Virus record (IMG/VR): IMGVR_UViG_3300031369_000001
Span: 38,615-102,614 of that record
Source of the DNA: a virus
Length of the DNA stretch: 64,000 nt
Reading direction: 5' to 3' (one strand)
This document shows positions 59,810-64,000 of the stretch, piece by piece. Below the pieces are notes generated by a model. It saw only the letters and a program-made list of their open reading frames with translations, was not told where the DNA came from and ran no database searches. Made by a program: the position numbers and the translations under genes. Positions within the stretch are counted from its first letter, which is position 1; every line of letters begins with the position of its first letter.

Positions 59810-60241
59810 TTGGACATGCAGATTATAGAATCAGTAGTACGTCATACATTTTTTGTGCCACAAAATAGTGTGGATAGGTTTGGATATTCTTTAGAGGACT
59901 ATAAATCTATATTATGTATTAAATATTTAGAAACTATAAAAGATAATGTTTTATTACAAAATAAGCGTTCTTATTTATTTCAGGTCGCTAAAAATATTAA
60001 AATTGATTTACTTAGAAAGTATAAATTAAACTATATTTTAGCTAGTAATGAAAGTATTACATACGATGAATACATAGAAGCTATTGAGGCAATACACATT
60101 TTGCAAGAAAAATTGACACAATATGAATATTACTTGTTGCTAAAATGGGTGTTTAAGTCTTATAACTATTTAGAACTTGAATCGGGCTTTTATTACAAAG
60201 TCCAAAACGTTTTGAAAAAAGCAAAAGGAGTTTTAAAATGA
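59810..60241 (+). CDS. Small ECF-sigma-like protein
   Basis: SYLFQVAKNIKIDLLRK resembles region 2; TATAAT and GAGGTG upstream of TTG. Confidence 0.55.
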   Translation: MDMQIIESVVRHTFFVPQNSVDRFGYSLEDYKSILCIKYLETIKDNVLLQNKRSYLFQVAKNIKIDLLRKYKLNYILASNESITYDEYIEAIEAIHILQEKLTQYEYYLLLKWVFKSYNYLELESGFYYKVQNVLKKAKGVLK

Positions 60242-61149
60242 CAGTAGATCAAATGCAACTTTCTGAATGTTATACTAAAGGCTGGGCTGCTAATGTCGAT
60301 CCAGTTTGCAAAGAGTGTTCAGCTGCTACTAAGTGCAAAGACGGTTTATTGCATGGGGTTTTTCATGAAGTAGTATCGATGAATCCTGGTATTACCAATG
60401 ACCAGCTTTCACAGGCGTTGACTATTCCTGTAGAATCTATTCATGTGCTAAAACAAGAATACGATGAGTTTATGGGGGGAGCCGCGCCTACTCCTCCTAC
60501 TCCTCCTGTTCAAATGCCTACTCCTCCTGTTCCTCCTCAAGTACCCCAAATGCCTACTCCTCCTACTCAAATGCCTACTCCTCCTGTTCAAATGCCTACT
60601 CCTCCTACTCAAGTACCGCAGCAGTCATCTGATCCTTGTAAAAAGCGAAAGGGAAAGCGACCAAAAGATTTGATGGATTGTCCTTATTGCAATAATGGAT
60701 TTGGTCCAGACGGAAATCCTTGCGCCGTATGCGGAGGTTACGGCAATATCTCGGCGAAAAAACTTCAGGCATACCAACAAAGTCAATCACCGTCGGTGGC
60801 AACGGGAACGCCAGAACAGGTTAATACGCAACCTATTGCCAGGAATGGTATTACTGCGGGAATGGCAGGGGGAAATACATCGAGTGGTAGTATGCCAGGG
60901 GTATTACCGTTACAAAGGACATCGGTATCCAACGTTGTACAGCCTAGTGCAACAAATAGTGGGCCAGCGAATCCGCCCCAAGCAACGTCGTCAGGGCAAA
61001 CGTCCAAAAGGGGCAAAGCCGTGTCCGGATTGGAGCGGACCTCGATTTTTTCGGTTGAAGCAATTCTTCCTTTGACCACTGGCGAAGTCATTTCTTCTGA
61101 GTTCAGTAATGCGCTTGGAACTGTTACCGTAACTATGCGGCTCAAATAG
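60238..61149 (+). CDS. Zn-finger/Pro-rich protein (303 aa)
   Basis: C..CKEC...C, Pro-rich repeats, DnaJ-type CPYCNNG...CAVCGGYG. Confidence 0.7.
   Translation: MTVDQMQLSECYTKGWAANVDPVCKECSAATKCKDGLLHGVFHEVVSMNPGITNDQLSQALTIPVESIHVLKQEYDEFMGGAAPTPPTPPVQMPTPPVPPQVPQMPTPPTQMPTPPVQMPTPPTQVPQQSSDPCKKRKGKRPKDLMDCPYCNNGFGPDGNPCAVCGGYGNISAKKLQAYQQSQSPSVATGTPEQVNTQPIARNGITAGMAGGNTSSGSMPGVLPLQRTSVSNVVQPSATNSGPANPPQATSSGQTSKRGKAVSGLERTSIFSVEAILPLTTGEVISSEFSNALGTVTVTMRLK
60484..60620 (+). repeat. Pro-rich coding repeats (QMPTPP[VT])
   Basis: caaatgcctactcctcct units. Confidence 0.9.
60695..61075 (+). CDS. DUF2924-like protein overprinted in the +1 frame
   Basis: PGMVLLREWQGEIHRVVV....YRYKGHRYPTL......I.G...WSGPRFF.L matches the DUF2924 signature as recalled. 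Confidence 0.75.
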   Translation: MDLVQTEILAPYAEVTAISRRKNFRHTNKVNHRRWQRERQNRLIRNLLPGMVLLREWQGEIHRVVVCQGYYRYKGHRYPTLYSLVQQIVGQRIRPKQRRQGKRPKGAKPCPDWSGPRFFRLKQFFL

Positions 61150-61164
61150 TTTTTATTCTAGTGA

Positions 61165-63135
61165 ATGGTTTTTCAGTACACGCCTACGGAATTTTTAAAC
61201 CTTCCTCCTTTTCAAGGCAATAAGGAGATAGTTCGAAATTATGACTCATTTGAAAGAATGGTTCATTTTTTAGAGCTATCTCCTTTTATTACCTTCGATA
61301 CCGAAACTTCTGGAACTGCCTGGTATAGGCATGCTTCTATTTGTGGTGTTTCTTTTTCAGGAATTTTAGATAATGCTTTTAAATGTTTCTATATTCCTTT
61401 TAGACATAAAACTGGGGAAACTCAATTATCGTTTAGTAGGTGTGCAAGTGGTTTAAAAAAATTATTAGAGAATGATCGTTTAAAAATTGCACATAATTTT
61501 AAGTTTGACGAACATATGTTTCGTAAAGAAGGTATTAGTATCAATGGACCTCGATACGATACAATGATTGCGGCACATATTTATAATGAAAATGTATCTG
61601 CTGCTTTAAAGAATAGAGCGGTTTTAGATTTAAATATAAAAGATGCTCAATTATATGAGCAAGCAGTTGATATTAAGTTAAAAGAATTAGCTAAGCTTAA
61701 TAATATGAAGATAACTGAATATAAATACCAATTTGGTTATTCTCATTTGCCAATTGATCTTTGTGGAATTTATGCTTGTTACGACGTTGATTTTACTACT
61801 CAGCTTTATTGGTTTTACGAAAGGAATCATATATCAACTGATTACTCTAGGGTATTTAATACTGAAATGGATTTATTAGGTGTGCTTTGCGATATGGAAG
61901 AAAATGGCATGCCTATAGATACGGATTACCTTTTTGATTTAAAGAGTAAACTACAAATAGTTAAGTCCCAAGTAGAAGAAAATTTATTCCATAATATGCG
62001 AATACGTAATTTTAATATAGCTTCTGATGATGAATTACGTAATTTTTTATTGAATGATTTATCTTTACCTTTAACTAAACAAACAAAAAAATTTCAATTA
62101 TCAGTGGATAGTGACGTTTTAAAAACATTTTCAAGTTACCATTCTGCTTTATCCCTTATATCTAAATGGAAAGAAGCTGATAAATTAGCCAATACATATA
62201 CTGACTCCATTGTCCGTTGTATGGATTCTAAAAATCTAGTGCATTGCGATTTTCAACAAATAGGAACAATTGCATCTAGATTGAGTTGTAGAAATCCTAA
62301 TTTACAAAATCAACCTACCGATGACGATGACAGAGCAATTGAATACAGTGGTGTTGACTTAGAGCATAATGGAATAGATCCTTGGTCTATTAGAAGGGCT
62401 TATATAGTAAGAGATAAGTCTTGGCCTCGTATATATTGGGATTATTCACAAATAGAATTGCGTATATTAGCGTACTATTCACAAGATCCAGTAATGGTGC
62501 AAGCTTATCTAAATGGTGAAGATATTCATTCTAGGACTTCTTTAGAAGTATTTGGGAATAAGGATAAGGCTTTTCGTAGATTAGCTAAAGTAATTAATTT
62601 TGGTTTATCTTATGGAATGACTGAATATCATTTTGCAGCCGCAGCAAATATCACAGTTGAGGAAGCTCGAGAATTTCTTAATAAATTTTTTGAAAGATAT
62701 CATGGTGTCAAATTATTTAGAGAGAATCTTTGGGAATACATTCGAAACAATGGTGGTTATTTTACTAATATATTTGGGAGACCGAGAAGAATTCCTAATA
62801 TTAATAGTTATAATATAAAAGACCGAAGTAGGGCTGAACGGCAATCTATTGCTACGCATATCCAAGGTAGTGCGGGAGAATTAACAAAAGAATCTCTTGT
62901 TCGCATCCATAAAGCAATTATGTCTGAAGGATTACAAGGTTTAGTTTTTCCAGTCTGTACAATTCATGATGAAGTACAATATGATTGTTGTGTAGATGTG
63001 TTGCCTAAATTTTGTAAAATAGTTAAAACAGTAATGGAAGACTATGAAGAATTTAAACCTATTCCTATAATAGTTGACTCTGAATATACGTTAACTAATT
63101 GGTCTGAAAAACGTGGATTGAAATTAGCTGCATGA
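61165..63135 (+). CDS. DNA polymerase family A with 3'-5' exonuclease
   Basis: FDTETSG, HNFKFD, YACYD; DYSQIELR, RRLAKVINFGLSYG, IHDEV. Confidence 0.96.
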   Translation: MVFQYTPTEFLNLPPFQGNKEIVRNYDSFERMVHFLELSPFITFDTETSGTAWYRHASICGVSFSGILDNAFKCFYIPFRHKTGETQLSFSRCASGLKKLLENDRLKIAHNFKFDEHMFRKEGISINGPRYDTMIAAHIYNENVSAALKNRAVLDLNIKDAQLYEQAVDIKLKELAKLNNMKITEYKYQFGYSHLPIDLCGIYACYDVDFTTQLYWFYERNHISTDYSRVFNTEMDLLGVLCDMEENGMPIDTDYLFDLKSKLQIVKSQVEENLFHNMRIRNFNIASDDELRNFLLNDLSLPLTKQTKKFQLSVDSDVLKTFSSYHSALSLISKWKEADKLANTYTDSIVRCMDSKNLVHCDFQQIGTIASRLSCRNPNLQNQPTDDDDRAIEYSGVDLEHNGIDPWSIRRAYIVRDKSWPRIYWDYSQIELRILAYYSQDPVMVQAYLNGEDIHSRTSLEVFGNKDKAFRRLAKVINFGLSYGMTEYHFAAAANITVEEAREFLNKFFERYHGVKLFRENLWEYIRNNGGYFTNIFGRPRRIPNINSYNIKDRSRAERQSIATHIQGSAGELTKESLVRIHKAIMSEGLQGLVFPVCTIHDEVQYDCCVDVLPKFCKIVKTVMEDYEEFKPIPIIVDSEYTLTNWSEKRGLKLAA

Positions 63136-63648: not shown

Positions 63649-64000
63649 ATGAGTAATTCATCAAACACAAATATGCCTCCTCAATATTATCCTGTACAGG
63701 GCCAACCTCAATATCCTAATAATCAACCTCAATATCCTAATAATCAACCTCAATATCCTAATAATCAACCTCAATATCCTAATAATCAACCTCAATATCC
63801 TAATAATGCATATCAGCCGCAACAAGGATTTCCACAACAAGGATATCCTATTCAATCACCATATCCTATGCAAGGACAAATGCCTGTTTATAATATGCCT
63901 GATGCTAATCAAATGATGAGTGCATATCAAGAGCATAAAATGTCTATGGGACGCGGTGGATCTCAATATACTTTTGTTAAATTTTTAGGCCCAAATAATG
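63649..64000 (+). CDS. Probable ssDNA-binding protein, N-terminal low-complexity part (3' truncated; not in ORF track)
   Basis: AAGGAG RBS, ATG 63649, open to the window end; SSB call is from gene context only. Confidence 0.55.
   Translation, partial: MSNSSNTNMPPQYYPVQGQPQYPNNQPQYPNNQPQYPNNQPQYPNNQPQYPNNAYQPQQGFPQQGYPIQSPYPMQGQMPVYNMPDANQMMSAYQEHKMSMGRGGSQYTFVKFLGPNN
63703..63807 (+). repeat. 21-nt perfect tandem repeat x5 encoding QPQYPNN
   Basis: caacctcaatatcctaataat x5. Confidence 0.97.

Follow-up and report, generated by a model that had tools for sequence, protein, structure and literature searches.

In Escherichia coli dnaX (tau/gamma), a -1 frameshift takes place at A_AAA_AAG and the shifted frame stops almost at once. 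[quoted passage not shown] To our knowledge, DNA phages seldom have long regions in which both frames are selected for protein, and such regions are difficult to demonstrate. A change of frame can also take place during transcription: in some bacteria slippage replaces frameshifting at dnaX, and some insertion sequence (IS) elements use transcriptional realignment, including +1 realignment (PMC5009743). Here we describe a gene at 60238-61149 of a 64,000-nt stretch of viral DNA (the window; bases 38615-102614 of the 102,614-nt IMG/VR virus record IMGVR_UViG_3300031369_000001, estimated to be 95% complete), in which two overlapping frames are conserved and selected, and in which the second frame is likely to be entered by recoding at a short run of A.

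Frame 0 of this gene encodes 303 amino acids (aa) and is preceded by a Shine-Dalgarno (SD)-like AAGGAG; nested within it, the +1 frame encodes 126 aa from ATG 60695 to 61075 (Table 1). A preliminary description, made by reading the sequence, had stated that frame 0 stays open throughout and stops 15 nt before the polymerase gene, and that the overlap is richer in G+C than the rest of the window. Both statements agree with the coordinates (stop 61147-61149, polA ATG 61165, gap 15 nt) and with the composition, the G+C content being 0.511 in the overlap 60764-61074 against 0.328 in the whole window and 0.314 in polA.

The same description had recognised DUF2924 in the +1 frame, and a Pfam search of both frames bears this out for one half of that family. 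The +1 ORF matches PF11149 (DUF2924) with an E value of 5.8e-12 and 46.5 bits (cut-off 31.2), residues 25-92 aligning to positions 58-125 of the 135-position profile, and the family scores 38.8 bits in a six-frame search of the genome; frame 0 has no significant Pfam match. Profile positions 1-57, which form the N-terminal helical half, are matched by neither frame. The +1 domain is thus not a canonical full-length member but is related to the C-terminal half of the family: it carries the PGxxLxREWxGxxHxVxV ... YxSL ... WSGxRFF motifs and differs by an insertion of ~17-20 aa (PKQ..G.RP.G) that is common to its phage relatives. When modelled by AF2 with 79 relatives, it gives a confidence (pLDDT) of 92.5 and a predicted template-modelling score (pTM) of 0.77, and is made up of two helices, a sheet region of five strands and additional helices. 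In the AF2 model of the frame-0 protein the helical N-terminal domain (N-domain) and a zinc knuckle are both moderately confident, and the residues encoded opposite the +1 domain are disordered, as is expected for an overprinted frame.

To follow the two frames among related viruses, nine distinct related loci were compared at the DNA level, six of the window type (the window, L001, L002, L003, L005 and L006) and three clear single-frame ones (L007, L020 and L021). L002 (90%), L001 (84%) and L003 (51%) are the closer relatives of the window, L005 and L006 the more distant ones, and in all five frame 0 stays open and the +1 frame is open over the domain and keeps its motifs. The frame-0 protein has 16 full-length homologues (41-93% identity), and frame 0 is open as far as the tail in 16/16. 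We calculated exactly how probable this openness is when the +1 protein is held fixed and synonymous codons are drawn by phage usage: P is 6e-9 for the window and 2e-9, 3e-9 and 1.5e-7 for its three nearest relatives, and is ~1e-3 even under uniform codon choice. With the roles exchanged and the frame-0 protein fixed, an open +1 frame has a probability of 4e-4 to 2e-2.

The pattern of substitution points the same way. The first position of a frame-0 codon is the wobble position of the +1 frame, and between the window and L001 the differences at frame-0 positions 1, 2 and 3 number 2, 0 and 29 in the N-domain, 0, 0 and 9 in the knuckle region, 18, 2 and 8 in the overlap core (60838-61074), and 2, 0 and 7 in the tail (61075-61146). 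In 60626-60762 there are 10 changes that are synonymous in frame 0 and nonsynonymous in +1, and 0 of the reverse class, while 60764-61074 (changes from 60790 to 61045) holds 10 frame-0-synonymous changes against 21 of the reverse class (Fisher p 1.6e-4); past the +1 stop the counts are 7 and 2. The selection regime flips directly after 60762. In the first 23 codons following ATG 60695, all 7 changes relative to L001 are +1-nonsynonymous and all are frame-0-synonymous. Overlap-aware estimates place the +1 dNN/dNS at 0.02-0.3 (for pairs that allowed the ratio to be computed), which is strong purifying selection, and the frame-0 dNN/dSN at 0.06 in close pairs (p 9e-4), rising to ~1 in the most distant pairs, a sign of weak to moderate purifying selection on the stretch opposite the +1 domain. 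These results support a real, conserved dual-coding region and show both frames to be under selection: the +1 frame is strongly constrained, and in frame 0 the constraint is weak on sequence but strong on openness, with a conserved tail.

An artefact or a gene in decay would be another account, in which a sequencing indel in the A-run had split one gene, or the +1 domain was a dead relic; homopolymers are indeed error-prone and single-frame relatives exist. A sequencing indel, which the preliminary description had also considered, is excluded: independent assemblies at 90%, 84%, 51% and lower identity repeat the two-frame layout, down to ~50% protein identity. The openness of frame 0 through the tail in every homologue, with a chance probability of 1e-9 to 1e-7, the conserved tail, and a +1 frame that is open throughout and under strong purifying selection speak against decay as well, and we regard artefact or decay as extremely improbable. 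We also rejected a double shift, with +1 at the A6 run and then -1 at the T6 inside WSGPRFF (~61044-61049), which would lead back to frame 0: this would not require frame 0 to be open, yet openness is strongly selected.

Relatives in which the two parts are joined were found with HMMER, using the +1 alignment as query over 1.84 billion proteins. The best of the 279 hits are proteins of 280-430 aa that carry the domain in frame at the C-terminus, and these single-frame relatives exceed the Pfam cut-off for DUF2924. Their N-domain (CxGxxWE..C..C..CL.KF..) aligns with the frame-0 N-domain of the window in hhalign (probability 95.4%, E 2e-8, residues 5-81 to 3-79), and their C-domain (RWxRER..PGM..YPTLYS..WSxxRFF) aligns with the +1 domain (E 4.7e-38). 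Unlike in these relatives, in the six window-type loci the C-domain lies in the +1 frame relative to the N-domain. Three of the single-frame genes, L007, L020 and L021, stand after a small ORF and directly before polA, as does the gene in the window; in the window-type loci, too, it is directly upstream of polA. Among the homologues both arrangements raised in the preliminary description, two open frames and an in-frame fusion, occur. When the window is read with a +1 step at the A-run, the hypothetical 278-aa product (P0167) is colinear with the single-frame relatives (residues 6-277 to positions 4-286 of a 300-position profile, E 1e-37).

As the preliminary description had it, the DnaJ-type knuckle (60679-60744) ends just before GCG AAA AAA CTT, the A6 run (60757-60762) being in frame-0 phase, and ATG 60695 has no clear SD. 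The run is A6 in the window, L002 and L003, A8 in L005, A5G in L001 and A4 in L006. Taking into consideration that: (i) selection switches right after 60762, (ii) the shifted product is colinear with single-frame relatives, (iii) no start codon precedes the conserved RW in L006, (iv) ATG 60695 has nothing like an SD before it and stands at a position that L003 does not keep, and (v) the G+C-rich relatives already require a shift; the evidence favours, without proving, recoding at the A-run, the switch and its site both being inferred. The preliminary description had left a programmed shift, slippage at A6 and true overprinting side by side; dual coding is now supported, and between its sources the comparison leans to recoding. 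We consider it moderately probable that this is one gene with two alternative C-terminal halves, of which the DUF2924-like half would be reached by a +1/-2 shift at 60757-60762; with slippage by RNA polymerase counted in, recoding at the A-run is likely.

The +1 domain could instead belong to an overprinted independent gene, in which case initiation inside the gene, at ATG 60695 or close to it, would make it as a small protein (~126 aa in the window), and frame 0 would be translated through on its own. This ATG is present in the window, L001 and L002, with others nearby in L003 and L005, and many of the HMMER hits are stand-alone homologues of the domain, ~100 aa long, that begin ~10 residues ahead of the RW motif. 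SD-like motifs are not universal in this phage (29/47 ORF starts in the window have one), and RNAalifold found no frameshift stimulator. Against this reading, the 25 nt that precede ATG 60695 hold no SD-like motif, the ATG position is not kept in L003, and L006 has no ATG, GTG or TTG in its +1 frame before the conserved RW; over the 23 codons from the ATG to the A-run, evolution follows frame 0 alone, and these ATGs of the +1 frame are by-products of Asn/Asp-Gly codons of the knuckle. In addition, the nearest relatives at the equivalent genomic position have the N-domain and this domain in one chain, and in G+C-rich relatives the knuckle has no start before its first CxxC, so that a frame switch is already required in the family. 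Initiation inside the gene seems to us rather unlikely, though not negligible.

Slippage of RNA polymerase on the A-run would produce a subset of mRNA with one A fewer (or two more), normally translated to a protein composed of N-domain, knuckle and DUF2924-C-like domain. The homopolymer stands at the junction and reaches 8 A's in L005, and +1 trans-frame products made by transcriptional realignment are documented for IS elements (PMC5009743). Because the protein made would not differ from that of a ribosomal shift, the comparative evidence holds in full for this mechanism too. The runs of 4-6 A's (L006, L001, window) are short for efficient slippage, bacterial examples having ~9 (PMC5009743), and we judge this mechanism quite improbable.

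Several observations weigh against recoding at the A-run. The run is short, and the relatives do not keep it strictly (A5G in L001, A4 in L006); bacterial transcriptional slippage is described for runs of ~9 (PMC5009743), and Lys-Lys in an AT-rich genome yields A-runs by default. RNAalifold on 5 sequences gave -7.1 kcal/mol after the site with no convincing covariation, and on reading the sequence of the window and its relatives no suitably placed internal SD was noticed. The in-frame ATG 60695 is present in the window, and the existence of ~100-aa stand-alone proteins indicates that the domain can work without the N-domain.

Evidence from the G+C-rich relatives bears on the frame switch from the opposite side. 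The -1 frame of L007, L020 and L021 stays open over 254-296 codons, to a point just before polA; it encodes the same CxxCxGxG..CxxCxGxG knuckle as the window, a shadow of the C-domain, and a ~95-aa domain (B domain) that it has in common with the frame-0 tail of L006. In these -1 open stretches there is no ATG, GTG or TTG ahead of the first CxxC of the knuckle: the first starts lie past the knuckle in L007 (4991) and L021 (2970), and at a GTG in mid-knuckle in L020 (2859). Because the knuckle of these relatives has no start before it, a frame switch is needed somewhere in the family, and Lys A-runs are present in the short stretches where a -1 shift could enter (L007 ATA AAA C, L020 AAA AAG G, L021 A AAA AAT). 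Between L007 and L020 the substitution classes alternate as predicted: the ratio of A-frame-synonymous to -1-frame-synonymous changes is 37:5 in the N-domain, 8:12 in the knuckle, 44:16 in the C-domain and 18:42 in the B domain (C-domain vs B, p 4e-6; knuckle vs C-domain, p 0.013). L007, L020 and L021, although called single-frame here, are two-frame genes as well.

A trace of the same arrangement may be present in relatives known from protein sequence only. Many of these (P0017, P0024, P0025, P0033, P0034, P0058, P0133 and others) keep an NPxxAGSAKxAxxPAK motif in otherwise low-complexity, Lys-rich linkers. In L021, the stretch that matches this motif (HPMKAGSARPAADPAT) is the other-frame reading of the knuckle, which is consistent with the motif being a shadow of a CxxCxGxG knuckle in the -1 frame. 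If it is, a hidden second frame would be widespread in the family.

We propose the following course of expression. Standard translation in frame 0 gives the 303-aa protein, with a Cys-rich, helix-turn-helix (HTH)-like N-domain, a Pro-rich linker, the knuckle, ~85 disordered residues and a tail of a helix and a beta-hairpin. A fraction of ribosomes or transcripts would shift by +1 (= -2) at the Lys-Lys A-run, and the shifted product, of 278 aa, would have the first ~174 residues in common with the other and then continue into the folded DUF2924-C-like domain. Both halves recur in the wider family. The default frame of the G+C-rich relatives is the one that holds the DUF2924-like half, and their -1 frame holds the knuckle, the disordered stretch and the tail domain; in either arrangement each folded domain stands opposite the disordered linker of the other frame. 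Such a gene may have originated by an indel in the A-run of the linker's Lys codons, rescued by slippage at a run of this kind.

Whether this describes an old, family-wide gene of ~100-kb myoviruses is, in our estimate, an even call. Such a gene would have one N-terminal DNA-binding module and a programmed frameshift giving access to either C-terminal half over an overlap of 100-250 codons, in which each folded domain faces the other frame's disordered linker. The default frame would have been exchanged between clades (-1 into the knuckle/tail half in the G+C-rich relatives, +1/-2 into the DUF2924-like half in the AT-rich clade of the window), and the overlap would keep the stretch G+C-rich in a genome of 33% G+C.

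When compared with the systems named above, the gene as proposed would be like dnaX in its shared N-terminal part, different C-termini, candidate shift site in a Lys A-run and replication context. It differs in that the proposed shifted frame holds a whole folded domain of ~103 aa, with an overlap of ~105 codons and a +1/-2 direction, and in that no stimulatory SD or hairpin was found. With G/GT it would have in common a conserved phage frameshift, an alternative C-terminal domain, which in G/GT is made in a fixed ratio, and a direction that differs among phages. G/GT, however, belongs to the tail module and not to a replication/early module, its zero frame ends soon after the shift with no long dual coding, and the families are unrelated. 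In PRRSV nsp2TF a long trans-frame ORF likewise lies over a less structured part of the zero frame, with both frames conserved, but there is no sequence relation, and no exchange of the default frame occurs among its relatives. The orfA-orfAB pair of IS3/IS1 would resemble the proposed gene in a DNA-binding N-terminal part common to two products made by an A-run shift; here there is no mobile element and no transposase domain, and the overlap is far longer, with both ends conserved. What sets the gene apart from dnaX, G/GT and IS orfAB is a very long overlap selected in both frames, the pairing of a folded domain with a disordered stretch, and an apparent exchange of the default frame between clades. 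We did not find this arrangement described in the literature searched.

The coordinates of the gene's parts are collected in Table 1.

Table 1. Parts of the two-frame gene, in window coordinates.
Feature	Coordinates	Strand	Description or basis
Frame-0 ORF	60238..61149	+	303 aa: N-domain, Pro-rich repeats, Zn knuckle, disordered stretch, tail
N-terminal Cys-rich domain, helix-turn-helix-like core	60238..60480	+	Third-position substitutions, hhalign
Pro-rich PTPPxQM repeat linker	60481..60627	+	Length varies in alignment; AF2 pLDDT <50
+1-frame open stretch	60674..61075	+	133 codons + TGA (61073-61075); contains ATG 60695
DnaJ-type Zn knuckle CPYC..CAVCGGYG	60679..60744	+	Frame 0; four Cys invariant in 16 homologues
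A6 run AAA AAA (frame-0 Lys-Lys)	60757..60762	+	Proposed +1/-2 shift or slippage site
+1-frame DUF2924-C-like domain, 103 aa	60764..61072	+	Pfam, selection, AF2, hhalign
Frame-0 disordered stretch, residues 184-269	60787..61044	+	AF2 pLDDT ~30; opposite +1 domain
Frame-0 C-terminal tail + stop	61045..61149	+	Helix + beta-hairpin; residues 270-303, AF2 pLDDT 73-86

The N-domain resembles winged-helix/HTH folds weakly (Z 5.4-5.7, root-mean-square deviation ~2 Å over ~50 residues), and an ESM Atlas search with it gave scores below 0.8. The number of PTPPxQM copies varies across the 16 homologues, whose length is 285-328 aa. The two CxxCxGxG units of the knuckle are recognisable by eye in all loci; frame 0 of the window has no match to PF00684, the L005 knuckle scores 19.9 bits (below the cut-off of 32.7), and the relatives' knuckles match phrog_3931 and PF00684 weakly, both layouts reaching the same PHROG. 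The last 25 codons of frame 0 lie past the +1 stop; the tail pattern is kept in L005, and the window tail can be aligned to portions of the B domain, which is longer, in L006, L007, L020 and L021.

At its end (window 61067-61076) the +1 ORF reads CTT TGA C, or CTT TAA C in L002, which is also the context of the prfB +1 shift site. We considered this as a further shift and rejected it, as another +1 step enters a short frame only. An ORF of 120 aa on the minus strand (60783..61145) was also rejected as a gene: it is open in the window and L001 but has 51 aa in L003, and is most likely a by-product of G+C-rich, stop-poor, dual-coded DNA.

The function of DUF2924 is not known, and the papers that we found on it mention it in passing only. 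A Foldseek search of the PDB with the +1 domain gave nothing significant, the best matches being SH2 domains (E >= 0.4), a profile search of PDB sequences gave nothing meaningful, and the +1 ORF drew no match in a word-based search of proteins. VIA-align gave weak rows, to be taken as leads only, for MPND and the CcrM C-terminal domain (Z 5.2) and for SAND (Z 3.8). The DUF2924-C-like domain is probably DNA-binding. The HTH-like N-domain, these weak resemblances, the Lys-rich linker of the single-frame relative P0017, which has a weak, sub-threshold match to a histone-H1-like family, and the position beside polA together weakly suggest that the gene encodes a DNA-binding factor of the replication/early module; one of its two isoforms would bear a second DNA-binding domain, the other the knuckle with a tail for another partner.

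The phage itself is contractile-tailed, as judged by a major head protein, a tail sheath and a baseplate wedge, and all its genes lie on one strand, in a genome of 33% G+C. Its replication module comprises, in order, a DnaB-like helicase (57059), a primase-like ORF (58512), two small ORFs, the two-frame gene (60238-61149) and DNA polymerase A (61165). A 143-aa ORF (59810-60241) precedes the two-frame gene in the window, L001, L003 and L005, and its stop overlaps the gene start (ATGA); in the window it has no match in Pfam or PHROG. Small ORFs at the equivalent position in L006, L007 and L020 are similar to it in size. The polA beside the gene encodes 924 aa in L007 (5621-8395) and at least 886 aa in L020 (3624-6281), compared with 656 aa in the window (61165-63135); the extra segment looks like an intein, with an HNH-like motif in that of L020. 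An ORF at 63649-63999 runs off the end of the window and has tandem PQYPNNQ repeats near its N-terminus.

Searches for further relatives added little. A blastn search of deposited phages gave no match, scans of GTDB genomes with the alignment of frame-0 homologues (A1) and with alignment A8 found nothing, and neither did scans of IMG/VR with the single-frame relative P0017 and with P0023; a scan with alignment A10 found only L030, a distant, degenerate relative.

Gene callers left the nested +1 ORF uncalled in the window clade, and none of the frame-0 homologues bears the DUF2924 label; automatic annotation misses dual-coding regions of this kind. The family offers a clean comparative system: the two halves are found both in one frame and in two, and between clades the default frame seems to have been exchanged. 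Several questions become open to test, among them the birth of a frameshift site, the sharing of DNA by an ordered domain with a disordered linker, and the freezing of base composition by dual coding. DUF2924 itself gains a defined context, in a replication/early-gene module and tethered to an HTH-like domain.

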